From Verrucomicrobiota bacterium (GTDB lineage: Bacteria > Verrucomicrobiota > Verrucomicrobiia > Limisphaerales > J093), in contig JAXGQW010000014.1 in NCBI GenBank assembly GCA_040766265.1, forward strand, positions 2,494 to 66,493: a stretch of DNA of 64,000 nucleotides. Direction: 5' to 3'. This document shows positions 9,961 to 61,678 of the stretch, piece by piece. The position numbers and the translations under genes were made by a program. Position 1 is the stretch's first letter, and each line of letters starts with the position of its first letter. Below the pieces are notes generated by a model. It ran no database searches. It saw only the letters and a list, made by a program, of their open reading frames with translations, and was not told where the DNA came from.

Positions 9961-10197
9961 CTAGCCTGCATTTCTCACCACTTTTTGCCACCGCGAAGCC
10001 GGAGTTCACAAGAGAAGTCAGCATGCAGGCTAGGAAAGCAAAACCGCGCCCGAGTGGAGGGATGGAACCGGGCAACAGAGTTTCGCCGCACCCGCGAGGT
10101 TTCGGAAGCGCTCCAAACCTCGTTCTTCCCTGTGCGGGCGCGGTTTTGCCACAGCCCGGATTTCAGATGACTCCTTCAAATGGTGAGAAATCCGGGC
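9961..10197. repeat. REP/BIME-like hairpin array (modules R1-variant, R2a, R3)
   Basis: Three consecutive hairpins: CTAGCCTGCAT...ATGCAGGCTAG (9961-10033); GCAAAACCGCGCCCG...CGGGCGCGGTTTTGC (10037-10149); GCCCGGATTTC...GAAATCCGGGC (10153-10197). Confidence 0.8.
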
Positions 10198-11413: not shown

Positions 11414-11704
11414 CGCATACGCGTCAGCCTAATGAGGCTTCACAATCCGGGCCAAGAACACTGGGGCTCCTTGATCCCGGCTGCTGGAGCGGCAGGCATT
11501 GCCGAGGGTGCCGCCTTGGTCGAATCGGCAGCGAAGTCGCGAAGCGTTTGGAGTGCGCGCGGTTTACCGCCGCTTTTCGAACACGGTGGTCGGTATCGTC
11601 CCAGGCAAAGCGGTGCTGAAGCACTCGCACTCCAAGCGCTCCGCGCTACCGAACACGCTCGTGCCCGGACAGCTTCCGTGCAAGGTCCGCATCTTAGCCG
11701 GCCT
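11414..11704 (+). repeat. Structured ~300-nt intergenic repeat, copy C (right end truncated by an R1-type module)
   Basis: Starts GCGCATACGCGTCAGCC. The core is nearly identical to copy B through ...GTCCGCATCTTAGCCGGCCT, then runs into TAACCCGCATATTTCACACCCCG. Confidence 0.8.
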
Positions 11705-11814
11705 AACCCGCATATTTCACACCCCGTCGGATCGCCAAATGCTCCTGTCCGATCGGTGAGGGTGATTGTCTCGAGCCAGGGACTTGCGCCCTGCCGCGCT
11801 GGGAAATGTCCGGG

Positions 11815-12901: not shown

Positions 12902-13301
12902 CCTAGCCCGCATATTTCACACCCCGACGGTGCACAGGGCGGTCAGACTTCGCACGAGGACTGCAATGCGGGCTAGAAAAGCAAAACCGCGCCCGGTCCC
13001 AGAGTCAGAGAGATGCAACACACTGTTCATATGGAAGAACACCTTCAGGACCGACGGGATCCTCTTGGGTCCCTTTCCGGGCGCGGTTTTGCCAACTAGC
13101 CCGGTTAGGAGTCCTCGCGAAGCGTGTGAAATAACCGGGCTAGCCCGCATATTTCACACCCCGATGGTGCACAGGGCACTCAGACTTCGCAAGAGGACTG
13201 CTATGCGGGCTAGGCCCCGGCGAGAACCGGCTGAAGCCGACACCCAACCGCGTCTGGGGCTGGCGCGGTGTTCGGTGTGCCGCCTTCAGGCGGCTCGTCG
13301 C
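12902..13301. repeat. REP/BIME-like hairpin array (R1, R2b, R3, R1, R4); the intact paralogue of the array split at 43.7/51.4 kb
   Basis: R1 CTAGCCCGCAT...ATGCGGGCTAG 12902-12975. R2b GCAAAACCGCGCCCGG...CCGGGCGCGGTTTTGC 12980-13091. R3 TAGCCCGGTTA...TAACCGGGCTA 13096-13141. Second R1 13140-13212. R4 13212-13301, which is the reverse complement of the unit at 29204-29288. Confidence 0.85.
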
Positions 13302-15340: not shown

Positions 15341-15578
15341 TAGCCCGGATATTTCATGAGGCTTCGCGGGGTCTCATATCCGGGCTCTGGCAAAACCGCG
15401 CCCGCACATGGAAAAACGAAGTTCGGAGCGTTTCGAAATCTCGCGGGTCCAGCGACACTCTGTTGCCCGGTTGCCTCCCTCCACTCGGGCGCGGTTTTGC
15501 TTTTCTAACCCGCATAGCAATCATCCTGCGAGGTCTGACCGCCCTGGGCGCCGATGGGGTGTGAAAGATGCGGGTTAG
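15341..15578. repeat. REP/BIME-like hairpin array (R3, R2a, R1), inverted relative to the array at 9961-10197
   Basis: TAGCCCGGATAT...ATATCCGGGCT (15341-15386). GCAAAACCGCGCCCG...CGGGCGCGGTTTTGC (15390-15500); its interior is the reverse complement of 10052-10134. CTAACCCGCAT...ATGCGGGTTAG (15505-15578). Confidence 0.8.
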
Positions 15579-30880: not shown

Positions 30881-31017
30881 GCCCCCGGACAGCGTAGGGT
30901 GCCTATTGTGTAATGAGCGACAGATGGAAGACAGTTCTTGGCAAAGGCCGTCCTTGCGGCTGCCCGCTCCGTTCGGGTGAGAACGAATGACACGCGGCGG
31001 CGCGCCTGTTGCATTTC

Positions 31018-34000
31018 ATGATGGATATGACCCTATTAAGCACTCGATGGTTCCTGGAGCGATGGTTGAGACTGCCGCTGGCCGCCTTGGTGGTCGGTTG
31101 TCATGCACAGATGCTCGAGGGGCATGCAGCGGCCAGATCCGCCCCGATACCGGCGGAGCAGGTCGGCATGGTGGCTGAGAGACAGTATCGGGGGGAGGGC
31201 GCGTCGGTTGAGGCCACCCTCGAGGGGGCGCGGCTGATCTGCACGTTTCAGCGCATCGAGGGGGAGGCGACGGGCGAGGGCCTCTGGCTGAGTTCGCTGC
31301 CTCGAGAGTTCGGGGAGGAGGGGCTGCGTGTTATCGCGCTCGAAGTGGGACGCGGGGGCGACATGGGTTCGGGCAGCGCTGGTTCGGACATTGAACTGCA
31401 AGGAGGCGGTGGCGTGCTCCCGGCGGTCGGACGTGTCGAGGTGGCGGGTTCAACGGCGCGTTTCATCCGTCCGGGTTTGACCGAGGAATACTCGGTGAGC
31501 ATCGAGGGAGTGCGGCAGGATTTTGTCATCGAGCAGAGGCCGGGGGGTGCGGGCCGATTGCGCGTGGAACTGGGTGTCGACGGGGCTCGAGTCAAGGCGT
31601 CGGCGGATGGGGCTCGGCTGGTGGCGGATCGCTCGGGGCGTGAATTGACCTACAACCGCTTGCGTGTGGTCGACGCCCGGGGGCAGGAACTTGATGCAAG
31701 AATGGAAGTGCGGGGCGAGAGCCGTCTGGCGGTCGTTGTGGAAGATGCGGCGGCTGCATATCCGGTGCGGATTGATCCGGTGTTCAGCGATGCGAATTGG
31801 GTGAGTTTGGGGGGTGTATGCGGAGCCAATGGCGAGGTGTACGCGGTTGCGGCCGACGATTCGGGCAACGTGTACATAGGCGGCGAGTTCGCCGTTGTGG
31901 GAGATGCCGTGGCCAACGGCATTGCCAAATGGGACGGAACTGGCTGGTCGGCCTTGGACACCGGGCTTGGGGGGACCGAATTCCTTGCCGTCTATGCATT
32001 GGCGGTATCGGGCACAGACCTCTATGTCGGTGGCTCGTTCAAGACGGCTGGCGGGGTTGAGGCGCAGCATATTGCCAAGTGGGACGGCAGCGCGTGGACG
32101 GCCTTGGGCTCCGGGGTCAATGGGTGGGTTTACGCCCTGTGTCTGATCGGCACGGATCTCTATGCGGGGGGCGATTTCACCTTGGCCGGCGGTGTCGAGG
32201 CCAATTCGATTGCCAAATGGGACGGAAGCGCCTGGTCAGCTTTGGGATCGGGAATGGGCGGCACCGAATCACCGAGCGTGTACGCCCTGGCGGCATCCGG
32301 CGGCGATCTTTATGCCGGAGGCTGGTTCGTCACGGCGGGCGGGATCGAGGCGAACTACGTCGCCAAGTGGGATGGAAGCGTCTGGTCGGCGCTGGGACCG
32401 GGCATTGGCGGGGGTTTCTCGGCCTCCGTCCACGCGCTGGCGGTGTCGGGCACCGATCTCTATGTCGGAGGTCAGTTTTACATGGTGGGTGACGTCTATG
32501 CGGGTCACATCGCGAAATGGGACGGCAACGCGTGGTCGGGTCTGGGGTGGGGTCTGATGAGCATGGATCTTTACACGATGGTTTATGCCCTTGCAGTGTC
32601 CGGCAGCGACCTTTACGTGGGGGGGCGGTTCACGATGGCGGACGATGTTCCGGCGGATCACATTGCGAGGTGGGATGGGGCCGCGTGGTCGGCCGTGGAT
32701 TCCGGGGTCGGGGGGGTGGAGTATCCGGCTGTTCGGGCGCTTGCGTTGTCGCCGAGCGCCGACCTGTATGCGGGAGGCGTGTTTACGCAGGCCGGAGGCG
32801 TTGGTGTCAGTCACATCGCCCGTTGGAACCGGAGCGGATGGTCAGCCCTGGGTCAGGGGATGAACGATACGGTGAGTGCGCTGGCACTGTCCGGCAACGA
32901 TCTCTACGTCGGAGGCAGTTTCACGACGGCGGGCGGGGTTGCGGCCAAAGCCGTCGCCCGATGGGACGGGACGGCTTGGGCGGCCTTGGGATCTGGGATG
33001 AACGATGCGGTGTGGGCGCTCGCGGTGCATGGCACAGACTTGTATGCGGGGGGCGGATTCACCATGGCTGGGGGTGTTCCGGCCGATTCCATTGCGAAGT
33101 GGGATGGCAACACCTGGTCGGCCTTGGGAACCGGCATGAACGGCCCGGTTCGTGCCCTGGCAGTATCGGGCAACGCGCTGTATGCGGGCGGCGTGTTCAC
33201 GACGGCCGGAGGCGTGCCGACCAGCTCGATCGCGCACTGGGATGGGGCCAAGTGGTCGGCTTTGGGGGCGGGTTTGGACGGGGAGGTGCGCGCGTTGGCG
33301 GTCTCCGGCAAGAGCCTGTACGCGGGGGGCAATTTTGCCAGGGCAGGCGCGCTCGTCGTCAACTCGATCGCGCACTGGGACGGGGCCAAGTGGTCGGCTT
33401 TGGGGGCGGGTTTGGACGGTGGAGTGCGGGCACTGGCGCTGTCGGGCGATGATCTGTATGTGGGAGGCTGGTTCGCGAAAGCCGGCGGCATTGAGGTGAA
33501 CTGCATTGCCAAATGGGATGGACGGGTATGGTCGGCTCTGGGGGGGGGGATGAACGGAGAGGTTCGCGCACTGGCCCTGTCCGGGAGCGCTCTCTACGCG
33601 GGAGGATCGTTTGCGAAGGCGGGCGGCATCGAGGCCAATCGCATTGCCACGTGGGATGGACGGGCGTGGTGGGCTCTTGGGCTGGGCATGGATCGAGGTG
33701 TCGAGGCCTTTGTGTTGTCCGGCAAGAGCCTGATTCTCGGCGGCGACTTCACCATGGCCGGCACGCACGCCTCCGGTTACGCCGTCGAAGCGCGAATCGA
33801 CGAGGGTGAGAAAGTGATTGGGGGAGAATTCAGCGCGTTGACCTACACGCCGGACGCGGGTTTCAGTTGCACCTTTCAGAACGCCACCATCGGTCAGTGG
33901 TACCGCATCCAGACCTCCGCGTCGCTGATTGGGGACACATGGACGGACCTGATGATTCTGCGATACAAGGAGCCGATTGTCATCAAGCAGGAATCCCCCA

Positions 34001-34098
34001 AGGCCCAGGCCAACGGCCTTTTCCGTGCAGTGACTGATGACGGCCCGTCTTCGGCGACTGGCGTCGGACTCGGATCCGCAGGATCGGAAGCGCGTTAG
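31018..34098 (+). CDS. Large exported protein with about 13 tandem ~46-55-aa repeats (predicted beta-propeller/Kelch-like)
   Basis: Start at ATG 31018 with a signal-like N-terminus. The repeat unit IAKWDG(S/T)AWSALGSGMNGxVYALAVSGxDLYAGGxFTxAGGVxAxx recurs from about 31.8 to 33.7 kb. Confidence 0.8.
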   Translation: MMDMTLLSTRWFLERWLRLPLAALVVGCHAQMLEGHAAARSAPIPAEQVGMVAERQYRGEGASVEATLEGARLICTFQRIEGEATGEGLWLSSLPREFGEEGLRVIALEVGRGGDMGSGSAGSDIELQGGGGVLPAVGRVEVAGSTARFIRPGLTEEYSVSIEGVRQDFVIEQRPGGAGRLRVELGVDGARVKASADGARLVADRSGRELTYNRLRVVDARGQELDARMEVRGESRLAVVVEDAAAAYPVRIDPVFSDANWVSLGGVCGANGEVYAVAADDSGNVYIGGEFAVVGDAVANGIAKWDGTGWSALDTGLGGTEFLAVYALAVSGTDLYVGGSFKTAGGVEAQHIAKWDGSAWTALGSGVNGWVYALCLIGTDLYAGGDFTLAGGVEANSIAKWDGSAWSALGSGMGGTESPSVYALAASGGDLYAGGWFVTAGGIEANYVAKWDGSVWSALGPGIGGGFSASVHALAVSGTDLYVGGQFYMVGDVYAGHIAKWDGNAWSGLGWGLMSMDLYTMVYALAVSGSDLYVGGRFTMADDVPADHIARWDGAAWSAVDSGVGGVEYPAVRALALSPSADLYAGGVFTQAGGVGVSHIARWNRSGWSALGQGMNDTVSALALSGNDLYVGGSFTTAGGVAAKAVARWDGTAWAALGSGMNDAVWALAVHGTDLYAGGGFTMAGGVPADSIAKWDGNTWSALGTGMNGPVRALAVSGNALYAGGVFTTAGGVPTSSIAHWDGAKWSALGAGLDGEVRALAVSGKSLYAGGNFARAGALVVNSIAHWDGAKWSALGAGLDGGVRALALSGDDLYVGGWFAKAGGIEVNCIAKWDGRVWSALGGGMNGEVRALALSGSALYAGGSFAKAGGIEANRIATWDGRAWWALGLGMDRGVEAFVLSGKSLILGGDFTMAGTHASGYAVEARIDEGEKVIGGEFSALTYTPDAGFSCTFQNATIGQWYRIQTSASLIGDTWTDLMILRYKEPIVIKQESPKAQANGLFRAVTDDGPSSATGVGLGSAGSEAR

Positions 34099-41677: not shown

Positions 41678-42292
41678 TCAGGGTGTGCCGGACGCCCCGT
41701 CTCGAGCGGTGCGCTTGCGCTTCGAGCGCCACTGGAGCGCTTCGAACACGGTGAAAACCGCGCTGGCCTGCTCCGCCAACTCGCCGAACTCCCGCATGTC
41801 ATCGTCAAAACCGTGCGGAAGATGGTCGGGGATGGCGTCGCCCTCGCGCACGAAATAGGCAAGGGCGCGGAGCAGACGCGGTTCAACGAGAGTCCAGTCC
41901 GGGCCCGGGTCAAAGCGCCCCTGATCGACGGCTTCGAGCAGGTCGACGCTGAGCCGCACCAGACGGGCCAGTTCGCGGTGATCGGGGCAGTTCGGGTGCA
42001 ACCGATCGAGTTTCGCTTCGATCTCGGGCCGGAGCCATCCGTTCTCGTGGGTGGGGCGCAACAGCTCGATCTCGCGTGTCGACACCGACCGCACCTCGAA
42101 ATAGGCGATCACCTCCATCAGGAATCGTCCGAGTGAACTCTCGCCTCGCGTCGAGGGTCCCCCCGGCGCGGGTGCCTGGATCTCGTCGGGCCGAGGAATG
42201 GATGGCGGCTTGCTGGCCGGAGGCCGGCGTTTCGACGGGCGCAACGCGTGTTTGCGAATCATGGCTATGGCGCACTGAGCGCGGTGTATCAT
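41678..42292 (-). CDS. Hypothetical protein
   Basis: ORF 41678..42355. The start is uncertain (42292 or 42262). Non-repetitive sequence with plausible composition. I recognise no family. Confidence 0.4.
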   Translation of the reverse strand: MIHRAQCAIAMIRKHALRPSKRRPPASKPPSIPRPDEIQAPAPGGPSTRGESSLGRFLMEVIAYFEVRSVSTREIELLRPTHENGWLRPEIEAKLDRLHPNCPDHRELARLVRLSVDLLEAVDQGRFDPGPDWTLVEPRLLRALAYFVREGDAIPDHLPHGFDDDMREFGELAEQASAVFTVFEALQWRSKRKRTARDGASGTP

Positions 42293-42382
42293 GCACAGGA
42301 AGTCAAACACCGCAAGTGATCGCGAGTGATTGCCCGACCGTTCAGGGAACGCCATCCTCTGCCCGACTGGCGATGCGGGGGC

Positions 42383-43487
42383 TCACTTCGCCGGCAGAAG
42401 AACAATCGAGCGCAGGTTCACAACGGCGCCGCGAGGCATTTCCCTTGCCTTGAGGGTGATGTCCACGGGGCCGGTGGCGCGGATCTGAACTCGTCCCACT
42501 TGGGCCGTCACAAAGTCGTCCCATCCCAGGGTGGCCGGAACGGTGGCGGAATGCTCGTCGTCGCCAATTTGCATGCTCACGACACTGCCCTCGGCGCCGG
42601 GGGCACAGGCATAAGTGGCCTCGACGATGTAGTCGCCGGCTCGAGTGATGGTGACCGGCCAGGTGGCGTAGTCTTTGGCATCGATCCAGTAGCCGAGGTT
42701 CGGCTCACCGCTCCCTTTGGTCTCGGTCTTGAGCAAGTGGCCGATGATGTCGGCGTCCGCCGCTCGCAGCGTGAGGGCGCCGTTGGTCTCCTGGCGAATC
42801 CGGGACACCACCACCATGGGCGGGCCGTCGATCTCGCAGACGACCACGCCGGCATAGGGGGATGGCGGTGCGCTGGGGACCGAGATGCGTTTGCCCTCCT
42901 CCCGGTCGGTCACTGCCAAGGTCTCACCCGGTTTGGCCAGGAGGTAGGCCTTCCTGACGCGACTGACCAGCGGGACATCAAGTTGGCCGTTCCGGGGCCA
43001 ATCAAACACGTGAAGGAAGAGCTTGCCGGGCTTTTGAGTGCATCGACCCCAGGCGAGTTTCTTGAAGGGGCTGGCGGTGGTGGAATAGATCGCCTCGCCG
43101 TTGACCTTCATCCAGGCGCCGACTTCCCCAAGCCGCTGCAGCGAAGGCTCGGGGATCAGCCCCTCGCTCGTAGGACCGACATTGAGCAGGTAGTTGCCGC
43201 CTTTGCTGGCGCAGTCGATCAGGTTGCGGACGAGCACCTGGGTCGGCTTCCAGTTGTGGTCGTAGCTTTTGAAGCCCCACGTGTCATTCATCGTCATGCA
43301 CGCCCCAGTGAATGAACAGCCCGAAGCGCGCCTCGCGCCACCACTGCATGCGGGCGTCGCGTTGCCGCGGGGTCTCGTCGGCGTAGGGATCCGGAGAATC
43401 GCCCGCCTCAACCGGGACCAAAGGACCAAACACGAGAGCAGCGGCCGCGATCACCGGAGTCAGGAAGGATGAAAGCCATGCAGGCAT
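42383..43487 (-). pseudogene. GH29 alpha-L-fucosidase remnant with an internal deletion of the catalytic core
   Basis: The N-terminal piece (signal peptide, then WWREARFGLFIHWGV) ends at about 43303. It joins out of frame directly to the distal part (TMNDTWGFKSYDHNWK..CASKGGNYLLNVGPTSEGLIP) plus C-terminal beta-sandwich/CBM-like domains (ORF 42383..43429). Confidence 0.75.
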
Positions 43488-43542
43488 GGCGAGGAGTCTC
43501 CTCAGCCATTGGAAGACAACAAGGAAAAACAGATCCATGCAC

Positions 43543-43731
43543 CTAAACCGCATATTTCACACCCCGTCGGTGCACATGGCGGTCAGACTTCTGAGACCGC
43601 TATGCAGGTGAAAAGCAAAACCGCGCCCGGTCCCAGAGTCGAAGTACAACACACTGTTCATATGGAAGAACACCTTCAGGACCGACGGGATCCTCTTGGG
43701 TCCTTTCCGGGCGCGGTTTGCCAACTGGCCC
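43543..43731. repeat. REP/BIME-like array (R1, R2b, and the left stub of R3) at the left border of the island
   Basis: Colinear with 12902-13100: CTAAACCGCATATTTCACACCCCG..., GCAAAACCGCGCCCGG...CCGGGCGCGGTTTGC, then CCAACTGGCCC. Confidence 0.8.
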
Positions 43732-43913
43732 AATTGAACGAAGCCGCTCCGCGAAAGCGGCGAGGAACGCCGCCTCGAACGGCATGTTCATCTGGCGTGC
43801 GGCCCTCGGTAAGTCGTTCGGCATTGTGTCCTGCCTTCCCGCGGCGTAGTTCCGGACGCCCGGCCGCCTCCAAGGCGAACCGAAGCGTAAACCAGGCATC
43901 AACTCACGTTCGT

Positions 43914-44788
43914 ATGCATAAAAAACTCGAGCCGTTCACGCCAGCCTAATCCGCTTCACCGACGACCTGCGTTTGCTCCCGCTGCTGCCCCGCACCCAAC
44001 AGGCCTACCTGGCCTGCGTCCGGCAATTGGGCGAGCACTTCCACAAAGCCCCCGAGGAGGTCCGCCCGAGGAACTCCGTCAGTACTTCGTCCACCTCAAA
44101 ACCGAACGTCACTTCTCCCGCTCCAGCTCCGCAGGCCCTCTGCGCCATCAAGATGTTCTGGGAGAAATCCCTCCGCCGCCCCTGGCCCGCCGAGTCCAGC
44201 TGGTCCGCGCCACCCCAGGTTCAAGCTCCCTGTCATCCTCTCCGCCACCGAGGTGCCGCCAGATCCTCGCTTCCATCCCCGCCCTCGATCATCGCGTCGC
44301 GCTGACCACCATTTCACCTCCCTGCAGCCTGCGCCTGGGCGGCGCTCAGCCTGGAAGTCGGCGACATCGATGCCGGGCGCATGTTCCTCCATCCGCGCCG
44401 GCAAGGGCAACCGCGACCGCTACTCCCCCTTGCCCCAACGCACCTTGCTCCTGCGCCGTGAGGGCTGGAAGGCTCATCATCCGCGCCTCCTCTTCCCTGC
44501 CAAGGGCCACAACGGCCAAGGCGCTGCCACCGCCGCCGAACCCATGTGTCGCACCACCCTGCAAGCGCGCCTTCGTCTCGCGCTCAAGGCCAGCGGCGTC
44601 AGCCGCTCATATCCATTCGTTGCGTCACAGCTACGCAACTCACCTGCTTGAGCAAGGCGAGAACCTCCGCCAACTCCAAGTCAACCTCGGTCACAAGAGT
44701 CCCACCGCCACCCGTCATCTACACCCATCTGACCACCCTCTGTCGCACCCAGCATCAGAAACGCCTCGACGCCCTCATGGCCGATCTC
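43914..44788 (+). pseudogene. Tyrosine recombinase (phage-integrase family), frameshifted, copy 1
   Basis: Pieces in three frames: TQQAYLACVRQLGEHFHKAPEEV; GNRDRY.PLPQRTLLL; SLRHSYATHLLEQGENLRQLQVNLGHKSPTAT..YTHLT (the R..H..Y catalytic region). Confidence 0.7.
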
Positions 44789-44799
44789 TGGGCCGGCTC

Positions 44800-45983
44800 A
44801 TGTCGGGATCGGCCCTGCCGGGGCCGGCGGTGACTCGATCCGTTTCCACCAGCTGCTCCAACGCTGGGGGCCGGCTTATCTGAAACAGTTCGGCACCGCC
44901 GTGCCTGGCGAAGCCGCCAGGTGCTCAAAGCTCCTGGCCTGCCGCACCCCGCACTGGGCAACGAACTCTTCGCCTGCACCCAGCGTGCGGCCACGTTCTC
45001 CGATACACTATCCTCCTGCAACGATCGGCACTGCCCTCAGTGCGGCCAGACCGACGCCGGCCAGTGGCTGGCCAACCACGCAACCCTGCTGCTCGGTCCC
45101 TTACTTCCTGGTCACTTTCACCGTCCCGCAGCCACTGCATCGCCTCTGGATGCGCTCGCACCCCGGCCAGGATTTGGATCTGCTCTTCGCCACCTCGGCT
45201 CCATGCTCCAGGATCTGGTCCGCAACCCCCAGCCGCTCCAGGGCTTCCCTGGGCATGCTCGGCCTCCTCCACACCTGGAGCCGCACCCTCATCTACCACC
45301 CTCACGTTCACTACCTGGTTCCCGCCGGTGGCCAGGCCTCGATCAACGCCGGTGGGTTCCCAGTCGTCCCAAGTTCCTCGTCCATGTCCATCCGCTGGCC
45401 GATCACTACGCACCCTCTTTCGTCAGGCCCCTCAACGCGATGCGCCCGACCTGCTCAAGACCTTGCCCGCTCGCGTCTGGAAGCAGCGTTGGGTGGTCCC
45501 ATTGCCAGCCCGCCGGTTCCGGTGAGGCCGCCTTGCGTTATCTCAGCCGCTACGTCTTCAAAGACCGCCACGGGCGACCGCGACTTGCCCCTGCTCCCCC
45601 GATGGCCGGGTGCGCTGGCGCTATCGCGACAGCACCTCGGGGCGTGAAGAGCACCTGGACCTGGAACCCTTCGAGTTGATCCGCCGTTTCCTCCAGCACG
45701 TCTTGCCTTCCGGCTTCCCGCCGCGTCCGTCGCTTCGGCTGGCTTCACCCCGCCGCCCGCGCCAAGCTCAATCGGGTGCGCGCCTTGCTCCGCCAGGCCC
45801 CGGCGCTCACCCACGCCGAGCGTGCCGCCGCAGCGGCCTGCCCCAGCCCGACTTCCGAACCGTCGAACCGCTCCCGACCTCCCAATCCAAGCCGCTGCCC
45901 GCAGTGCCGCCAACCCATGACCCACCGGCTCCTGGCGAGCGGGGCAACCCCAGTTACGTCCCCCAGTCCGCGGCCCACCATGA
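44800..45983 (+). pseudogene. IS91-family-type Y2 HUH transposase, frameshifted, copy 1
   Basis: Recognisable blocks: CNDRHCPQCGQTDA (zinc module), LLHTWSRTLIYHPHVHYLVPAGG (HUH), and EAALRYLSRYVFK, which is readable only in another frame. Confidence 0.7.
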
Positions 45984-46389
45984 GCGCGCCCCTCCCGCCA
46001 GCATTCCTGGCAGCGGCTTCGAGGCTCACCCTCCACCGGTGGCGTGTCGGCAGTCCCCGCCCAAAACCTCTACCTCACCTTCCGCCCAGCGCGCGGGCAA
46101 GCGACCAGACCAAACCAGAGACCCTTGATGGGGACTTCCAAGGACAGCAACGCGGGCCACGCCCCCACGCCACGGCTGATCCGGGCGCACCGGCTGCACT
46201 GGGCGCAGACACTTTCCTCAAACAGATCCTCGCCGACTCCGGTTCCAGGTTGGCCGCGGCTTCGTTCAACCGGGGAATGTAAAGAACGGAGGAGGCGCTT
46301 TGACCCAGACCAAATCACGCCCTTGCCCCGCCTCCTCCGTTCTCTACATTCCTTTGGTCAGTTAGCTCCTGGCTTGAGGACGAGTGGCA

Positions 46390-46584
46390 TCATCTCAGTG
46401 CGAAGGGAGCGAAAACGCAGAGGATCAACCCGGTCACGATGATGAAGAAGCAGAGCTGACGGAACCTTGGGTAGCTCATCCCGCTCAGCTTCTCCGGCCG
46501 CGCTCGGATGTACAGCATCGCGGTCGCCCCCCAACCGACGCAGAACACCCCAATGATGACGCCGAGCAGTGCGTTCGCAGTCAT
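46390..46584 (-). CDS. Small two-helix membrane protein (64 aa), cargo ORF 4
   Basis: ATG at 46584. Two hydrophobic helices (ALLGVIIGVFCVGWGATAMLYI; LCFFIIVTGLILCVFAPFAL). Starts 6 nt after palindrome X2. Confidence 0.5.
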   Translation of the reverse strand: MTANALLGVIIGVFCVGWGATAMLYIRARPEKLSGMSYPRFRQLCFFIIVTGLILCVFAPFALR

Positions 46585-46590
46585 ATCGTG

Positions 46591-46697
46591 AGCTAACGAC
46601 CAGGTGAGGCACGGCGACCGCAGACACCACGGCAGTCACCAGGCCCGGTTCTCCAAGCGAGTGCTCGGGTCGCGGTTGCCTCGACCGTCTGGTTCGG
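46591..46697. repeat. Imperfect palindrome X2
   Basis: Plus strand: AGCTAACGACCAGGTGAGGCACGGCGACC...GGGTCGCGGTTGCCTCGACCGTCTGGTTCGG. It is the sister of X1 (48658-48765). Confidence 0.8.
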
Positions 46698-47010
46698 TGC
46701 CCCCAGCCCCAAAGGGGCGCAAGACGATAGCCCAGGGCAAGCCCCGAGTCGGCGAGGGGTGCCGCCCTGGGTAGAACGCCCGTTGAAATCAGCCAAAGCC
46801 CCAACGGGGCGGAACAATCGGGGGGAGCGTCGGCGCGCTGTGCGTCCCCGAGAGCTGGTCTCGCCCCTACAGGGCTCCGGGGTCTCTTGGGGTGGCTGAC
46901 CCAGGGCGACGCTCGCCTGGGGGCTCGCTTGCCCTGGGCTGGCGTGTCGTGGCCCTTCAGGCCACCCCGGGGTCCGCACCGGTGGATGGCGAGGGATGTA
47001 ACGCACCGAA
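46698..47010. repeat. Non-coding filler made of short G/C hairpins
   Basis: CCCAGGGC...GCCCTGGG hairpins at 46731-46771 and 46900-46938. GCCCC-AAA-GGGGC (46705-46717) and GCCCC-AAC-GGGGC (46798-46810). No credible ORF. Confidence 0.5.
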
Positions 47011-47106
47011 CGCCCCGGCTCAGGCAGGCCGGGCAAATGACGTCTGATTGCCAACCGAGAGGCGATCCCGGCCTTGCCTGCAGCCGGATGGGTAGGTGGC
47101 GAATAT

Positions 47107-47508
47107 CTAATCTGTCTTTGCATCTAGTGAACGCCTCAAGCAGACGGAAGCAACGGCAATGATACCGCCAACAGCCAAAGGCAAAAAGTGAGGAAACTCC
47201 TTCGGATGATATTCGGGCCGGATGTAATTCATGCGAACCCAAAAATACGAATAGTAGGCGAGTCCCAGCAGCAACAGAAGGACCGAGCCGACGCGTCGGC
47301 TGCCGCGCCGCAAACAAAATGTGCCAGAAAGAACCCCACTGAAGCCAACGAGCGCAAACACCACGTACAATCCCACCTCTCCAAGACCCAAGGCAATGGC
47401 CATACTGAGGAAGAGCGCCGCGAGCGAAGTAACGAACGACACTATGATGGCGGCTACGTATCTGCCGAAAAGAGAGGCGATCTGGATTGTGCGTGGTGTC
47501 ATAGCCAT
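47107..47508 (-). CDS. Four-helix integral membrane protein (133 aa), cargo ORF 3
   Basis: ATG at 47508, with four hydrophobic helices. GC is lower than in the surrounding DNA. Confidence 0.6.
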   Translation of the reverse strand: MAMTPRTIQIASLFGRYVAAIIVSFVTSLAALFLSMAIALGLGEVGLYVVFALVGFSGVLSGTFCLRRGSRRVGSVLLLLLGLAYYSYFWVRMNYIRPEYHPKEFPHFLPLAVGGIIAVASVCLRRSLDAKTD

Positions 47509-47599
47509 CTACCGACCCGGATCACCGACCCCGCGCCTGTGACGTCCGATTTGAAACTGAGGCGCTATCGCGGGGTTCGGTGCATCCGGTTTGTTCGAC
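47507..47599. repeat. Imperfect palindrome X5
   Basis: Minus-strand reading: GTCGAAC-A-AACCGGATGCACCGAACCCCGCG...CGCGGGGTCGGTGATCCGGGTC-GGTAGAT. The stem has two bulged bases. The 3' box overlaps ATG 47508. Confidence 0.75.
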
Positions 47600-48208
47600 T
47601 TGCGTTCCGTATCTTCTTCTATTCACTGCAAGCAACAGTGCTGCCCCGACTCCTGCAAGCGGTAAAACGTGCGGCTCCGGGACTGCCAACAATGAAACCG
47701 TCCCGTCGATAGGATTGGAAGTGCTCGGCCACATCGGCGGCATGCGAAGCACGGAGAATCCGACCCAGTCGTAGTCCGAAATGCTCCCGTAGCTTGTCGG
47801 GAGGCTGTCGTCCAGGACCGAGGATCGATCGTCGTCTCGAAAAAGGAAAAAGAGCGCATTCCCATCTGGCAGCGTGGAAGCAATGCCGAAGGCGGGAAAC
47901 TCTCCGGGGTCAAGGCTCACGTTGACGGAACCGCCGACCGAGTGGAACACCACTCCCTCACCAAGAACCTCCAGAGTCACGCTCAAATCCTCGGCCAGAT
48001 AAACGCCGAGATTGGCTGCGGGATCAGTGTCGGCCCACTCATCGGAATACGAAACGTGAAGCCGGAATGAATCACCCGCATCCGCGAATGGATACGTGCC
48101 GCTCCAAGCGTGATCAATCGTCCCGTCGGCAAGGAACGAAACCGTTCCCGCTTTCAGTGCGAAGCCGAAGGCAACCGTCCAGACCAGAATCAAGGCGCGC
48201 GTTTTCAT
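47522..48208 (-). CDS. PEP-CTERM-anchored exported protein, cargo ORF 2
   Basis: 228 aa with a signal peptide (MKTRALILVWTVAFGFALKA). C-terminal VPEP..LPLAGVGAALLLAVNRRR. About 30 extra codons are read out of palindrome X5. Confidence 0.7.
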   Translation of the reverse strand: MKTRALILVWTVAFGFALKAGTVSFLADGTIDHAWSGTYPFADAGDSFRLHVSYSDEWADTDPAANLGVYLAEDLSVTLEVLGEGVVFHSVGGSVNVSLDPGEFPAFGIASTLPDGNALFFLFRDDDRSSVLDDSLPTSYGSISDYDWVGFSVLRMPPMWPSTSNPIDGTVSLLAVPEPHVLPLAGVGAALLLAVNRRRYGTQVEQTGCTEPRDSASVSNRTSQARGR

Positions 48209-48214
48209 GGTGTT

Positions 48215-48319
48215 GTCGAACGCAAAGGTCAGCGACGGGAGCCAGCCGCCGATGACGTTACATTTGTGTTTGAGCTGAACGGCTGGCTCCCGTTAGCTGC
48301 ACCGCACCGTCTGGTTCGC
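48215..48319. repeat. Imperfect palindrome X3
   Basis: Stem GGGAGCCAGCCG (48237-48248) / CGGCTGGCTCCC (48280-48291). Boxes GTCGAAC (48215-48221) and GTTAGCT (48292-48298) on the plus strand. CCGTCTGGTTCGC (48307-48319) matches the X2 end. Confidence 0.7.
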
Positions 48320-48647
48320 TGCTGAATCTTGCTCCCGGAATTCGCGAGCACGTAACAACAGCCTCCTGAATATTTGTGGCAATGTCGCCCCCTGGATAAG
48401 TGTAAAAGCCTGAACTAAGAATCTCACCATCGCTGCACACGAATCCTATATCTGTCACATTAAGTTTTGCGGTGGAAATCGCCACCCACGTTTCATCCTC
48501 CTTCTTCTCAACGATTACGGCGGCCTTTTGTCGTTGCTGCACTACCGAAGTTTCACTCCAAGTCATCGGTCGCGCTTGATTGATCGTAGACGACTCCCGG
48601 CAACCAACCAGCATGATCAAAGCGAACACAGGGGATAGCAATCGCAT
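48258..48647 (-). CDS. Small lipoprotein (129 aa), cargo ORF 1
   Basis: Inside ORF 48258..48920. I place the start at ATG 48647 (MRLLSPVFALIMLVGC, a lipobox). GC is lower than the surroundings. The last ~20 codons come from the X3 arm. Confidence 0.6.
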   Translation of the reverse strand: MRLLSPVFALIMLVGCRESSTINQARPMTWSETSVVQQRQKAAVIVEKKEDETWVAISTAKLNVTDIGFVCSDGEILSSGFYTYPGGDIATNIQEAVVTCSRIPGARFSSEPDGAVQLTGASRSAQTQM

Positions 48648-48657
48648 AGCATTGTGA

Positions 48658-48765
48658 AGCGAACGACCAGGTGAGGCACGGCGACCACAGACCCCGCGGA
48701 GGTCACCGGTTCCAGCCCTCAAACCGAGTGCACGGGTCGCCGTTGCCTCGACCGCCTGGTTGAAC
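48658..48765. repeat. Imperfect palindrome X1, fused to the left tip of unit copy 2
   Basis: Plus strand: AGCGAACGACCAGGTGAGGCACGGCGACC...GGGTCGCCGTTGCCTCGACCGCCTGGTTGAAC. TTGAAC is also the first 6 nt of the unit. Confidence 0.8.
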
Positions 48766-48939
48766 GAAGCCGCTCCGCGGCGGCGAGGAACGCCGCCTCG
48801 GAGCGGCATGTTCATCTGGCGTGCGGCCCTCTGATGATCGTTCGGCATTGTGTCCGCCACCCTTCCCGCGGCATGGTTCGGACGCCCGGCCGCCTCAAGG
48901 CGAACCGGGCGCCAAACCAAAAACTCAACTCACGTTCGT

Positions 48940-49826
48940 ATGCATAAAAAAACTCGACCGTTCACGCCAGCCTAATCCGCTTCACCGACGACCTGCGTTT
49001 GCTCCCGCTGCTGCCCCGCACCCAACAGGCCTACCTGGCCTGCGTCCGGCAATTGAGCGAGCACTTCCACAAAGCCCCCGAGGAGGTCACGCCCGAGGAA
49101 CTCCGTCAGTACTTCGTCCACCTCAAAACCGAACGTCACTTCTCCCGCTCCAGCTCCACCCAGGCCCTCTGCGCCATCAAGATGTTCTGGGAGAAATCCC
49201 TCCGCCGCCCCTGGCCCGCCGAAGTCCAACTGGTCCGCGCCACCCCAGAGTTCAAGCTCCTGTCATCCTCTCCACCACCGAGTGCAGCCTGATCCTCGCT
49301 TCCATCCCCGCCCTCGATCATCGCGTCGCGCTGACCACCATTTACTCCTGCGGCCTGCGCCTGGGCGAAGCGCTCAACCTGGAAGTCGGCGACATCGATG
49401 CCGGGCGCATGTTCCTCCACATCCGCGCCGGCAAGGGCAACCGCGACCGCTACGTCCCCTTGCCCCAACGCACCTTGCTCCTGCTCCGTGAGGGCTGGAA
49501 GGCTCATCGCCATCCGCGCCTCCTCTTCCCTGCCAAGAGGCCACAACGGCCAAGGCGCTGCCACCGCCGCCGAACCCATGTGTCGCACCACCCTGCAACG
49601 CGCCTTCCGTCTCGCGCTCAAGGCCAGCGGCGTCAAGAAAGCCGCTCATATCCATTCGTTGCGTCACAGCTACGCAACTCACCTGCTTGAGCAAGGCGAG
49701 AACCTCCGCCAACTCCAAGTCAACCTCGGTCACAAGAGTCCCACCGCCACCGTCATCTACACCCATCTGACCACCCTCTGTCGCACCCAGCATCAGAAAC
49801 GCCTCGACGCCCTCATGGCCGATCTC
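48940..49826 (+). pseudogene. Tyrosine recombinase (phage-integrase family), frameshifted, copy 2
   Basis: N-terminal SAM-like part sits in ORF 48999..49292 (TQQAYLACVRQLSEHFHKAPEEVTPEELRQYFVHLK). The core sits in ORF 48821..49690 (ALTTIYSCGLRLGEALNLEVGDID..IRAGKGNRDRYVPLP). The C-terminus sits in ORF 49398.. (HIHSLRHSYATHLLEQGENLRQLQVNLGHKSPTATVIYTHLT). There are at least two frame changes. Confidence 0.75.
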
Positions 49827-49841
49827 ACTGGAGCCCGGCTC

Positions 49842-51020
49842 ATGTCCGGGATCGGCCCTGCCGGGGCCGGCGGTGACTCGATCCGTTTCCACCTGCTGCT
49901 CCAACGCTGGGGACCGGCCTATCTGAAACGGTTCGGCACCGCCGTGCCCTGGCGGCAACGCCAGGTGCTCCAAAAGCTCCTGGCCTGCCGCACCCCCGCA
50001 CTGGGCGGCGAACTCTTCGCCTGCCCAGCGTGCGGCACGTTCCATTACGCCTATCACTCCTGCAACGATCGGCACTGCCCTCAGTGCGGCCAGACCGACG
50101 CCGACCAGTGGCTGGCCAACCACAGCAGCTTGCTGCTCCCGGTCCCTTACTTCCTGGTCACTTTCACCGTCCCGCAGCCACTGCGCCTCTGGATGCGCTC
50201 GCATCCACGCCAGGATTTGGATCTGCTCTTCGCCACCTCGGCTCAAGCGCTCCAGGATCTGGTCCGCAACCCCCAGCGGCTCGGGGCTTCCCTGGGCATG
50301 CTCGGCCTCCTCCACACCTGGGCCGCACCCTCATCTACCACCCTCACGTTCACTACCTGGTTCCCGCCGGTGGCTTGGGCCTCGATCAACGCCAGTGGGT
50401 TCCCAGTCGTCCCAAGTTCCTCGTCCATGTCCATCCGCTGGCCGATCACTACCGCACCCTCTTTCGTCAGGCCCTCCAACGCGATGCGCCCGACCTGCTC
50501 AAGACCTTGCCCGCTCGCGTCTGGAAGCAGCGTTGGGTGGTCCATTGCCAGCCCGCCGGTTCCGGTGAGGCCGCCTTGCGTTATCTCAGCCGCTACGTCT
50601 TCAAGACCGCCACGGGCGACCGCGACTTGCCCCTGCTCCCCGATGGCCGGGTGCGCTGGCGCTATCGCGACAGCACCGGGGCGTGAAGAGCACCTGGACC
50701 TGGAACCCTTCGAGTTGATCCGCCGTTTCCTCCAGCACGTCTTGCCTTCCGGCTACTCGCGTCCGTCGCTTCGGCTGGCTTCACCCCGCCGCCCGCGCCA
50801 AGCTCAATCGGGTGCGCGCCTTGCTCCGCCAGGCCCCGGCGCTCACCACGCCGAGCGTGCCGCCGGCGGCCACCCCAGCTCCGACTTCGAACCGTCCGAA
50901 CCGCTCCCGACCTCCCAATCCAAGCCGCTTTGCCCGCAGTGCCGCCAACCCATGACCCACTGCGGCTCCTGGCGAGCGGGCAACCCCCAGTTACGTCCCC
51001 CAGTCCGCGGCCCACCATGA
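49842..51020 (+). pseudogene. IS91-family-type Y2 HUH transposase, frameshifted, copy 2
   Basis: FACPACGTFHYAYHSCNDRHCPQCGQ (zinc module). LLHTW then a frame change to GRTLIYHPHVHYLVPAGG (HUH; ORF 50030..50686). ALRYLSRYVFK (Y-x3-Y). Further shifts occur before RVRRFGWLHPAARAKL and CPQCRQPMT. Confidence 0.8.
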
Positions 51021-51399
51021 GCGCGCCCCTCCCGCCAACGTTCCTGGCAGCGGCTTCGAGGCTCACCCTCCACCGGTGGCGTGTCGGCAGTCCCCGCCCA
51101 AAACCTCTACCTCACCTTCCGCCCAGCGCGCGGGCAAGCGACCAGACCAAACCAGAGACCCTTGATGGGGACTTCCAAGGACAGCAACGCGGGCCACGCC
51201 CCCACGCCACGGCTGATCCGGGCGCACCGGCTGCACTGGGCGCAGACACTTTCCTCAAACAGATCCTCGCCGACTCCGGTTCCAGGTTGGCCGCGGCTTC
51301 GTTCAACCGGGGAATGTAAAGAACGGAGGAGGCGCTTTGACCCTCAGACCAAATCACGCCCTTGCCCCGCCTCCTCCGTTCTCTACATTCCTTTGGTCA

Positions 51400-51438
51400 G
51401 TTAGGAGTCCTCGCGAAGCGCGTGAAATAACCGGGCTA
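51400..51438. repeat. Right part of the split R3 REP hairpin at the right border of the island
   Basis: GTTAGGAGTCCTCGCGAAGCGCGTGAAATAACCGGGCTA matches 13103-13141 of the intact hairpin. Confidence 0.8.
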
Positions 51439-51734
51439 AATCGTGTCGCGATCGCGACAAGGAATTTGCACAGTGCGCAGGTGACGGTGTGGGGAAGGAG
51501 GAACCAGGAAGGCAGAGCGGGCAGCTTCGACCAGCGTCGGAAGGAAGTCCAACTCCTCCAAGCCTTCCTGGCCCGATCTGCACCGGCGCTGCCAGCCCGC
51601 CCCCACCACACACATCCCCCTGCAACCACTGCTCAAGCATATGAGAAGACCATGGGCAGGCGGGCGTCGCTGCACTGGTTCCTGAATTCGCCCTTGCTTG
51701 CCAGGCATGGGCCGCGCGCGCATGATCGGCACCC

Positions 51735-60193: not shown

Positions 60194-61678
60194 CTAGTAC
60201 TTCGGCAGCACGTTGACTATCCCCTCGTACACCGGCATCGCGTCCGGACCGGCTTGTCGCGACTGGCGATCGAGTTCGCGACGCATCTGCCTGAGCACCT
60301 TCGCCGCAGCGGGATCGTTGATGCGATTCGTCATTTCGTATGGATCGCGGCGCAGGTCGTACAGCTCCGCCGTGAACCGGTCCGGCCCGCCGTCCCCGTG
60401 CGGGTAGCGGATGTATTTCCAGTCGGCCGTGCGCACGGCGCGCACGTTCGGCGTGTACGGGAACTGCTGCTCGTAGTTGTACTCGTAAAGGAACGCCTCA
60501 CGCCACGCGGCGGATCGGCCCTGGGCCAGCGCTTTCCATGACCTGCCCCGAATCCCCCGGAGCGGCTTGGCGCCGCAAAAGTCCAACAGGCTGGGCGCCA
60601 GATCGAGACTGAGCACCATCTCGCTCACCACTGTGCCCGGTTTCACCGCGGGCGGATACCGCACCAGCAGCGGGATGCGCAGGCTCTCCTCGTAGGCCGT
60701 CCGCTTGTCCACACGCCCGTGCTCGCCCAGAACAAAGCCATTGTCGCTGGTGAACACGATCAGCGTGCGATCGAGCTGGCCGGCGGCGCGCAACGCTTCG
60801 TAGACGCGCCCGACACTCTCGTCGACCGAAAGCAGCGTGGCCAGGTAAGCGCGCACAAACCGGTCGTACTGCTTCTGGCCGTAAAGCGGGCCGCCCGCGC
60901 CGTGCCAGGTGGGATAGCTCTCTTCGATCCAGGGGGGCTTGCCCTCGGCGGCGTGGTAGTTGCCCGCGTTGACCGGGGGGTTCACTGGGAAAGCGTCGAG
61001 CGCGTGCTCGAATCGCGGCTCGGGCTGGATCGGCCCGCCGTGGGGCGCTTTCTGTCCGAGGATCAACAGCCAGGGACTGTCGTGCGGCTGGCGGAGCCAC
61101 TCGATGGCATGGTCGGTGACGACCGTCGTGTAATAGCCGGGCACGGTGCGTCGAGTGCCGTTGAAGTTGAACTCGTTGTCGAAGTAGTTCCCCTGGCCCC
61201 GATGGCTCATCCAGTGGTCGAAGCCCGGGCGCTGTTCGTCGTTGTCCTCGCCCATGTGCCACTTGCCGATGTAGGCCGTTTCGTATCCGGCCTCCTTGAG
61301 CCGACGCGGGTAGCTGGGCAGAGCATTGGGATACTCGGTGAAGTTGTTCATCACCTGGTGCGTGCGCGCGTATTGACCGCTCAGAAACGAGGCCCGGCTT
61401 GGCGAGCACAGGGATGTCGTGACGAATACATTGGCAAACCGCGCGCCTTCGGCCGCCAGGCGATCCAGATGCGGCGTCTGAAACCAGGGGAACAAAGCGC
61501 GCTCGCCCTGCTCGCGCTGCACCACCCCCAGCGCATCCCAACGTTGGTCATCGGTGAGGATCACCAGGACGTTGGGGCGGGGCGCGCCGGACGGCGCGGC
61601 CGAGGCGATGGTCAGCGCCAGGGTCAAGGGCAGCAGCGCAATTGTGAGGCGTCCGATCTGCATGACATTCCGGTTCAT
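60194..61678 (-). CDS. Exported formylglycine-dependent sulfatase
   Basis: 494 aa with a signal peptide. Motifs: PNVLVILTDDQRWD, CSPSRASFLSG (FGly motif), GKWHMG. Confidence 0.9.
   Translation of the reverse strand: MNRNVMQIGRLTIALLPLTLALTIASAAPSGAPRPNVLVILTDDQRWDALGVVQREQGERALFPWFQTPHLDRLAAEGARFANVFVTTSLCSPSRASFLSGQYARTHQVMNNFTEYPNALPSYPRRLKEAGYETAYIGKWHMGEDNDEQRPGFDHWMSHRGQGNYFDNEFNFNGTRRTVPGYYTTVVTDHAIEWLRQPHDSPWLLILGQKAPHGGPIQPEPRFEHALDAFPVNPPVNAGNYHAAEGKPPWIEESYPTWHGAGGPLYGQKQYDRFVRAYLATLLSVDESVGRVYEALRAAGQLDRTLIVFTSDNGFVLGEHGRVDKRTAYEESLRIPLLVRYPPAVKPGTVVSEMVLSLDLAPSLLDFCGAKPLRGIRGRSWKALAQGRSAAWREAFLYEYNYEQQFPYTPNVRAVRTADWKYIRYPHGDGGPDRFTAELYDLRRDPYEMTNRINDPAAAKVLRQMRRELDRQSRQAGPDAMPVYEGIVNVLPKY

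Follow-up and report, generated by a model that had tools for sequence, protein, structure and literature searches.

How a 7.67-kb block of two insertion sequence (IS) copies and foreign genes came to lie inside a single repeat hairpin is the question raised by a 64,000-nt stretch of Verrucomicrobiota DNA (contig JAXGQW010000014.1), which we refer to as the window. The block occupies positions 43733-51399, between the remnant of a fucosidase gene and recD2, and contains two IS91-type elements in direct orientation, copy A (43733-46360) and copy B (48759-51399), with cargo DNA between them. We consider it to be probably the product of IS91-type rolling-circle transposition, for which one event is the simplest history. 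To our knowledge, IS91-type elements have barely been described in Verrucomicrobiota.

The two IS copies and their proteins

Local alignment of 43734-46365 with 48760-51404 gave 2688 columns, of which 2539 are identical (94.5%) and 50 mismatched, and 69 indel events, in agreement with a preliminary description of the window that had recognized two homologous units of the same orientation. The unit ends given there (43734-46367 and 48760-51406) are corrected here to those stated above. The main parts of the block and of its immediate flanks, in window coordinates, are:

43543-43546, plus strand: left CTAA of the 4-5-nt duplication flanking the repeat array; CTAA stands at both array ends in the window
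43547-43732, plus strand: left part of the array of repetitive extragenic palindromic (REP) sequences, with modules R1, R2 and the 5′ stem of the R3 hairpin, ending ...CCAACTGGCCC(A)
43733-46360, plus strand: IS copy A, 2628 nt from terIS to oriIS, heavily frameshifted as sequenced
43914-44790, plus strand: copy A recombinase region, with many frame breaks; its A-run is A6
44800-45993, plus strand: copy A IS91-family transposase region, with many frame breaks
46361-48758, no strand assigned: cargo, 2398 nt, with four small minus-strand open reading frames (ORFs) and its own hairpin repeats
48759-51399, plus strand: IS copy B, 2641 nt from terIS to oriIS, near the ancestral sequence, with ~6-8 frame-breaking indels
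48940-49833, plus strand: copy B tyrosine recombinase gene, with SAM-like and catalytic domains, frame breaks near 49259 and 49538 and a damaged stop
49842-51030, plus strand: copy B IS91-family transposase gene, with Zn-binding domain, HUH motif HVH and YLSRY
51400-51435, plus strand: right part of REP hairpin R3, opening with the native target GTTAG
51436-51439, plus strand: right CTAA of the REP-array duplication

As sequenced, neither copy has intact frames, and our frame check agreed with the earlier statement that no intact protein is encoded by either; in the copy B transposase gene, the first frame break falls near 50322 and more breaks follow after 50670. Families were scored on stitched frames of the copy B translation. 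The stitched transposase matched PF14319 (Zn_Tnp_IS91) with 93 bits (cut-off 26), PF04986 (Y2_Tnp) with 159 bits (cut-off 21) and NF033538 ("IS91 family transposase") with 332 bits (cut-off 125), while the upstream ORF matched Phage_int_SAM_4 and Phage_integrase. These scores, above their cut-offs, bear out that both units belong to the IS91 family and carry a tyrosine recombinase gene upstream of the transposase gene. Both copies, like the intact relatives, have HPHVHYLV as HUH motif and RYLSRYVFK with the two tyrosines (YxxxY), and the three transposase blocks read previously from the letters (CxxC..HSCNDRHCPQC, HPHVHYLVPAGG and YLSRYVFK) were all found in the translations. In the recombinase, the R/K/H/R/H/Y motifs are readable as GLRxxE, GKGNRDR, HSLRHSYATHLL and LGH...IYTH. 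The integron integrase models missed their thresholds (TIGR02249, 168.7 bits versus a cut-off of 265; NF011946, 123 versus 435); judged by these profiles, the recombinase is Xer/IntI-like and not an integron integrase.

Intact relatives (L001, L050 and L055) consist of the recombinase gene, a 9-10-nt spacer and a gene for a transposase of 394 amino acids (aa). The transposase family comprises at least 3995 proteins at E <= 1e-60, the top match being 85% identical, and no intact copy closer than 85% aa identity was found in public data. The recombinase gene lies directly upstream of the transposase gene in 35 of 43 fetched loci, and five of the other eight are cut by contig ends; in long-range comparisons, the recombinase keeps ~50% identity where the transposase keeps ~40%. 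Neighbouring genes annotated as tyrosine-type recombinase/integrase and IS91 family transposase also occur on plasmids of Herpetosiphon (pHAU01, Haur_5165/5164), Bradyrhizobium (pCC829_2) and Sinorhizobium (pSF25509a), where the pair is adjacent and co-directional as it is here and its genes are 5-20 nt apart or overlap. ISfinder lists two-ORF members with recombinase and transposase, e.g., ISWz1, ISShvi3 and ISAzo26. By sequence comparison, the pair is widespread and already annotated, and the element described here is a further member of a known group. In the papers accessible to our literature search, no described function of the IS91-associated recombinase was found.

Shortened and interrupted forms of the element were also observed. 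Internally deleted derivatives have the same breakpoints in contigs of different metagenome-assembled genomes (MAGs; L008 6002-6861, L033, L034, L011, L028 and L010): a deletion of 49450-50382 in window coordinates is present in L011 and L033, and one of 50609-51098 in L008, L033 and L034. The last three keep the 300 nt on the oriIS side at 95-97% identity. This pattern suggests non-autonomous copies mobilized in trans. In L058 (positions 1-2990; JGI 3300019360), a fragment of the recombinase gene is separated from the transposase gene by two opposite-strand reading frames, one for a serine recombinase of 692 aa and one of 135 aa, so that the IS-borne tyrosine recombinase gene appears to have been interrupted by an insertion.

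Element ends, target and the interrupted REP array

The limits of the element were determined by comparing 14 left and 11 right junctions at independent sites, taken from copies A and B and from L001, L006-L011, L028, L033, L034 and L050-L054. On the left, the copies share the tip GTTGAACGAAGCC after T(G/T); the right tip is ...CCTTTGGTCA, conserved across copies in the form ...CATTCCTTTGGTCA. In 11 of 11 right junctions, TTTGG(TCA) is followed by GTTN, directly after the conserved ...TTTGGTCA. Over the sampled junctions, the target tetranucleotide was GTTA seven times, GTTG twice and GTTC three times; the extended targets are GTTA(G), GTTG(G) and GTTC(T/G), beyond which the flanks diverge. 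The GTTAG at 46361-46365 and 51400-51404 is thus target and lies outside the element, as the comparison with the IS91 flanking tetranucleotide had anticipated. The features of the ends are:

46256-46271, plus strand: left-tip 16-mer of copy A, repeated internally in inverted orientation (GCGGCTTCGTTCAACC)
46274-46352, plus strand: oriIS-side subterminal hairpin of copy A, differing from that of copy B by one 2-nt indel (CT, 46306)
46361-46365, plus strand: GTTAG adjoining the copy A oriIS (target tetranucleotide, GTTA); the cargo begins with these bases
48761-48814, plus strand: terIS-side subterminal palindrome of copy B, folded, z = -3.8
51293-51308, plus strand: left-tip 16-mer of copy B, repeated internally in inverted orientation
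51311-51391, plus strand: oriIS-side subterminal hairpin of copy B, folded, z = -5.4

The 14-mer TTGAACGAAGCCGC that forms the left tip has inverted copies at 46256-46271 and 51293-51308, ~90 nt short of the right tip, which sustains the earlier reading; extended by GG/CC, it is a 16-nt inverted repeat. Compared with shuffled sequences, the right end folds at -26.7 kcal/mol (z = -5.4) and the left end with z = -3.8. The two ends are unlike each other and both carry strong hairpins, as the ends of IS91-family elements do, and insertion is oriented, 5′ to a tetranucleotide that abuts oriIS. IS91 elements have been reported to insert 5′ to a tetranucleotide (PMC10288648), and in IS91 the target tetranucleotide adjoins oriIS, has a conserved T at position 2 and is not duplicated, with terIS upstream of tnpA (PMC13181058).

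The likeness to IS91, IS801 and IS1294 extends from the transposase (Zn-binding domain and Y2_Tnp, with HUH and YxxxY) to the unlike ends with subterminal palindromes, the placement of terIS upstream and oriIS downstream of tnpA, the duplication-free insertion 5′ to a tetranucleotide whose second base is T and, on our reading of the block, the carriage of adjacent DNA by terIS read-through. As in IS801 and IS1294, the left-end tetranucleotide resembles the target (GTTG here, GTTC there). The element differs from these systems in its target, which is GTTN with A, G or C at position 4 where theirs is GTTC/CTTG, and in the 16-nt inverted repeat shared by the left tip and a position ~90 nt in from the right end. 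It also has an extra upstream tyrosine recombinase where IS91 has orf121, and its transposase is ~35-41% identical to annotated plasmid IS91-family proteins.

On both sides, the block is flanked by parts of one REP array. The left flank (43542-43731) aligns to 12902-13102 with 88% identity, and the right flank (51400-51438) matches 13104-13142 at 38 of 39 positions. The intact REP hairpin folds at 13096-13141, and a single base of it, G13103, is unaccounted for. Since the intact hairpin is otherwise fully accounted for, the 7.67-kb block interrupts one REP hairpin without duplication. The split hairpin proposed earlier therefore survives formal alignment of both halves, and the whole block stands as one insertion without target duplication, the interrupted REP being contiguous to within one base. 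The stem of the intact REP contains a native CCCG|GTTAG, so that the oriIS of copy B abuts a pre-existing target.

Close relatives were found via the neighbouring recD2 gene; among them, L045, L046 and L047 are Logan assemblies whose RecD2 is 97% identical and whose DNA is ~94% identical to the window, with an intact fucosidase of family GH29 (587 aa) encoded 188 nt from recD2. Their empty site reads GCACCTAAATCGTGTCGCG (shorter, ...CACCTAAATCGTG...), with a single CTAA(A) in GCACCTAAATCGTG, no REP array and no IS. At the same spot, the window reads GCACCTAA, left REP array, IS block, right REP array, CTAAATCGTG. Because the array is absent from these relatives and CTAA is duplicated in the window, the array is itself a recent insertion and the IS block is nested inside it. 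The preliminary description had proposed looking for an empty site in relatives; the uninterrupted R1-R2-R3 array expected there is missing, and the array can no longer be regarded as old flanking scenery. Everything from 41696 to 51597 is absent from L040, L041 and 22 further contigs; these are the 24 contigs read for P0001 without the island, of which two were aligned and 22 were grouped as similar places. No relative examined carries the cargo genes between the fucosidase gene and recD2 without the units, an arrangement that would have spoken against a joint insertion.

Other copies of the REP modules lie in the window at 10023-10167, 11700-11730, 12902-13213 and 15345-15578. The array is a mosaic of CTAG-bounded hairpin modules in which R3 is a shorter, inverted relative of R1; this arrangement gives a unit of ~230 nt resembling a miniature inverted-repeat transposable element (MITE), and at 43.5 kb the unit is a presence/absence polymorphism. 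Its recurring hairpin modules are like those of REP arrays, bacterial interspersed mosaic elements (BIMEs) and MITEs, and dispersed palindromic modules, presence/absence polymorphism and a flanking CTAA duplication were all found. Unlike classical REPs, the array is here a discrete recent insertion with a CTAA duplication, and thus more MITE-like.

Origin of the block and of the damage in copy A

All four junctions of the block are canonical, and the structure is therefore explained by IS91-type events; the composite or serial rolling-circle event suggested earlier was the right family of explanations. The target would have been GTTA within the stem of the REP hairpin, itself a recent arrival at CTAA within the 188 nt that separate the fucosidase gene from recD2. 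The element is bounded on the left by terIS (GTTGAAC... and then the palindrome) and on the right by oriIS (the ~80-nt hairpin and then ...TTTGGTCA), and inserts 5′ to the GTTN tetranucleotide without duplication. The bottom strand would be transferred, with both cuts after NAAC (oriIS end, CTAAC^TGACC; terIS end, GTTCAAC^). Transfer would start at the oriIS of copy B and run through that copy. If the terIS of copy B failed to stop it, 2.4 kb of adjacent DNA and the second copy would follow, and transfer would end at the terIS of copy A, i.e., by read-through (one-ended) or composite transposition. In accordance with a unit of this kind, the inner DNA is foreign to the site and the outer ends bound one contiguous target. 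One-ended transposition of IS91 has been reported at 1-50% (PMC13181058), and direct IS91-family copies around cargo, forming circles, are known for ISWz1 (PMC11322121).

Both the rolling-circle chemistry and the single event are what we infer from the sequence, and two observations count against them. In the genome and metagenome collections searched, no second A-cargo-B unit and no donor site were found, so that movement of the unit is deduced from its outer junctions only. Additionally, the left junction of copy A is the sole exception to the junction rule, reading CCCA|ATTGAAC where CCCG|GTTGAAC is expected (two G-to-A differences).

The same structure could have been built serially. In that case, a one-ended segment of cargo plus copy B, beginning GTTAGCTCC, would have inserted 5′ to the REP GTTAG, recreating CCCG|GTTAG at the left junction, and copy A would then have entered this regenerated target. 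That the cargo starts with GTTAG (46361-46365) agrees with such a course, as do the canonical state of all four junctions, the identity of the regenerated junction with the original target and the observation that one-ended IS91 products end at target-like tetranucleotides (PMC5737581, PMC13181058). Nevertheless, two hits would be needed at the same few bases, and copy A would become the younger copy, opposite to its apparent decay, which fits only if the damage in A is artefactual. Nothing in the sequence separates this course from a single event; we regard it as unlikely. We hold it to be less probable again that a single IS entered the REP hairpin and that the cargo and the second copy were added later, by homologous recombination with a circle of IS plus cargo in the manner of ISCR elements or by unequal exchange. 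Circular IS91-family intermediates with adjacent DNA are documented (PMC5737581, PMC11322121), copies A and B are near-identical once the changes private to A are set aside, as this model expects, and the left flank of B joined to the right flank of A gives ...CCTG|GTTAGCTCC, which fits TG|GTTN and a circularly permuted cargo. However, the cargo hairpin repeat H2, cut by the left tip of copy B, would be expected to continue GTTCG(G/C)TGC, as at 46690 and 48310, and not as GTTAGCTCC, so that the cargo ends do not obviously close into one hairpin; moreover, neither a circle of this kind nor a donor was found. ISCR elements and ISWz1-flanked resistance regions share with the block the direct IS91-type copies that bracket passenger DNA, and circular intermediates are known from them (PMC11322121); they differ in that the cargo here consists of four small envelope/secreted-protein genes without a known selective trait, and ISCR transposases are Y1 where the present one is Y2. 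Site-specific integration of the block into the REP hairpin by the tyrosine recombinase, in place of the HUH transposase, is very improbable. The recombinase is integron-integrase/Xer-like and more conserved than the transposase across phyla, and the target does sit in a hairpin stem; but the element ends and the REP have no core in common beyond GTTN, insertion elsewhere took place outside hairpins, at sites with nothing in common but T(G/T)|GTTN, the junctions follow precisely the rules known for IS91 transposases, and the score against the integron-integrase model, 169 bits, falls short of the 265 bits required. IS91-type transposition, most simply in one event, thus remains our preferred reading.

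The apparent age of copy A depends on the nature of its damage. When the differences between the two copies were polarized with outgroup copies from other genomes, 55 indels proved private to A, six to B and nine ambiguous, and 42 substitutions private to A, two to B and six ambiguous. Scattered substitutions and indels are therefore present, as described earlier, but they are not evenly shared, and symmetric in-situ decay of both copies is excluded. Of the 50 substitutions, 33 lie <=3 nt from another difference, and 32 of the 69 indels are in homopolymers. Natural comparisons gave substitutions and indels at 28:0 (fucosidase pseudogene versus L045), 708:7 (flanks versus L040) and 77:5 (copy B versus L011), and the 42:55 of copy A differs from each of them with p from 6e-9 to 1e-50 (Fisher p = 6e-9 against the pseudogene 200 nt away). 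The last 364 nt of A, which border the unique cargo, contain one difference where 19 are expected (p = 1e-7), and single-copy ORFs around the block are intact up to 1263 aa. The frameshifts of B likewise have an odd spectrum, with six indels to two substitutions (p = 2e-5), but are few. We take it as likely that the damage in copy A is unpolished long-read or gap-fill sequence in a repeat; the view of both units as decayed is doubtful, given that the damage is almost all in A (55 indels and 42 substitutions versus 6 and 2), is indel-rich and ends 364 nt before the right end.

That the frame damage is biological, both copies being dead relics, A old and B younger, mobilizable only in trans, is possible though doubtful. 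In its favour, both copies are broken as sequenced, natural decay does occur at the locus (648 nt lost from the fucosidase gene, with 11% divergence), deletion derivatives of the element circulate in related MAGs, public data contain no near-identical intact copy, and the 3′ 300 nt kept across the family (95-97% in L008, L033 and L034) would fit selection on a cis-acting oriIS. Against an artefact speaks also that B carries ~6-8 frameshifts with no intact copy nearer than 85% in public data, which makes real inactivation possible. The asymmetry would also follow if A were old and decayed and B younger, though the indel-rich spectrum and the clean 3′ end would not. Against biological damage, indel-to-substitution ratios of 55:42 in A and 6:2 in B are unlike every natural comparison in our data, substitutions cluster beside indels, the well-aligned parts of B have no in-frame nonsense codons, and a clean 364-nt margin beside unique sequence is what short-read polishing would leave.

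We also considered extending the noisy tract into the left REP array, which has private 1-nt homopolymer losses relative to the other copies; this is only suggestive, since REP copies differ naturally. Rebuilding an intact element from the A/B alleles that maximize ORF length was rejected, as GC-rich wrong frames stay open and the genes become fused; the rebuild lost the true frame past residue ~300, and frames were afterwards guided by homologous intact proteins.

Recombinase start, cargo and neighbouring genes

The beginning of the recombinase gene is unusual. In copy B, the sequence ATG CAT AAAAAAA, a putative start followed by a slippery A7 run for the recombinase, lies at 48940-48952 on the plus strand. 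Its counterpart is found at 43914-43925 in copy A and at L001 5087, L050 1038 and L051 360, and the motif is also present in L055, L059, L006, L009, L010, L008 and L033. ATG CAT A7 is kept throughout the clade, down to 66% transposase identity, with ATG CCT in L009 and ATA before the run in L006; an 11-codon mini-ORF follows the run in most members. Relative to the motif, the recombinase ORF is in the -1 frame in most members and in the +1 frame in L059 and L060. No ATG, GTG or TTG precedes the conserved first helix of the recombinase, and L051 and L059 have none in 57-60 codons. The Verrucomicrobial clade thus has an ORF without a canonical start behind ATG-CAT-A7, whereas distant members of the group begin with an ordinary ATG that precedes the corresponding helix by ~8 residues. 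In the codons ahead of the first canonical start, 46% of differences are synonymous in the recombinase frame versus 10% and 21% in the other frames, and gene callers assign the recombinase four truncated lengths, from 174 to 273 aa. The product predicted for slippage, MHKK(K)NSTVHASLIRF..., would have ~297 aa, the length of homologues with a normal start.

Based on these comparisons, translation of the recombinase seems to need slippage, transcriptional or ribosomal, on the conserved A7. An error in run length was rejected as the explanation, A7 being the conserved state in ten independent assemblies, and reinitiation after termination, at an ATC that overlaps the stop codon of the mini-ORF, was discarded since this ATC varies between copies, L001 and L009 having AAC. 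By analogy with Orf121, which tunes IS91 termination, the recombinase might act on folded single-stranded ends, resolving or closing a circle or helping terIS recognition. It is a rather improbable extension of this idea that the recombinase, made only after A7 slippage, would be a dosed second transposition enzyme in a two-enzyme HUH and tyrosine-recombinase pathway with a recoding switch.

The cargo has a G+C content of 0.52-0.585 over 47000-48800 versus 0.64-0.72 in the units and flanks, in line with the lower G+C counted before, except for 46600-47000 at 0.71. Its features are:

46390-46584, minus strand: ORF, 64 aa, predicted membrane protein, no family match
46591-46694, plus strand: hairpin repeat H1, 84% identical to 48658-48761
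47107-47508, minus strand: ORF, 133 aa, predicted multi-pass membrane protein
47522-48208, minus strand: ORF, 228 aa, predicted secreted protein with a PEP-CTERM-like tail, weak PEP-CTERM match
48258-48647, minus strand: ORF, 129 aa, lipoprotein-like (MRLLSPVFALIMLVGC)
48658-48758, plus strand: hairpin repeat H2, its 3′ arm cut by the left tip of copy B (...CGACCGCCTG|GTTGAAC)

Homologues of the PEP-CTERM gene at 68-74% stand alone in L048 and L049, and no record was found for two cargo proteins searched by exact sequence. The cargo is therefore not a conserved passenger module: only this gene has homologues, and they occur alone. The terIS of copy B abuts one of the cargo hairpin repeats. These repeats (48226-48318, 46591-46694 and 48658-48758) end ...CGTCTGGTTCG, i.e., TG|GTTC, which matches the target consensus, and intact relatives of H2 likewise read CTGGTTCG, a TG|GTTC target. 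The repeats were not found in the other 56 kb of the window, which gives no support there to their being the host's own REPs; similar ones lie near an IS copy in L010. The non-coding stretch at 0.71 G+C, which is 74% identical to L010 9692-10127, contains the single Rfam match, Acido-Lenti-1 RNA (RF01687), at 46705-46748 on the minus strand (37.8 bits versus a gathering score of 37), with an inverted partner at 46927-46957. No further copies of RF01687 were found in the window, L010, L048 or L049.

The REP and IS insertions lie ~60 nt upstream of the fucosidase start codon, in the divergent promoter spacer common to this gene and recD2. Represented in the window by ORFs 42383-43429 and 43284-43553, both on the minus strand, the fucosidase gene corresponds to the L045 gene (GH29 plus CBM6, 587 aa) minus 648 internal nt, with the deletion point at 43292-43302. 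It is thus a remnant, as previously noted, and has arisen by internal deletion from a gene that L045 retains whole. The 5′ remnant has diverged by 11% versus ~6% in the flanks. We rejected the idea that the 9.9 kb missing from L040 are one island, since the fucosidase region is ancestral (L045, L042) and L040 has deleted it.

The region between a radical-SAM gene and recD2 differs in every close relative examined, and this spacer is therefore an indel hotspot. The fucosidase gene and a 188/225-aa ORF are missing from L040, L042 contains 610 unrelated nt with another REP at 7176-7785, and L045 lacks 171 nt present in the window (51482-51652).

Elsewhere in the window, an extra 1.4 kb at 60.2-61.6 kb, considered as a second IS control, proved to be a 494-aa sulfatase gene (60200-61608; Sulfatase and SGSH_C) that is missing from the otherwise collinear L040 and L041. 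A 1029-aa ORF (31009-34098) contains 138- and 150-nt tandem repeats at 31879-33773 (7-10 copies, 60-82% identical), which indicates a repeat-domain protein unrelated to the IS block.

For genome analysis, the contrast between copies A and B means that indel-rich pseudogenized IS copies in clean assemblies may be polishing failures. At the locus itself, the fucosidase gene, with an insertion in its divergent promoter spacer, has since lost 648 nt, and a repeat hairpin array can itself be a recent insertion and then a landing pad. Within the family, the recombinase partner, more conserved than the transposase and apparently recoded, is the only less ordinary point. The block as a whole is a natural example of IS91-type elements picking up and moving neighbouring genes, documented by its junctions, its target rule and a true empty site.

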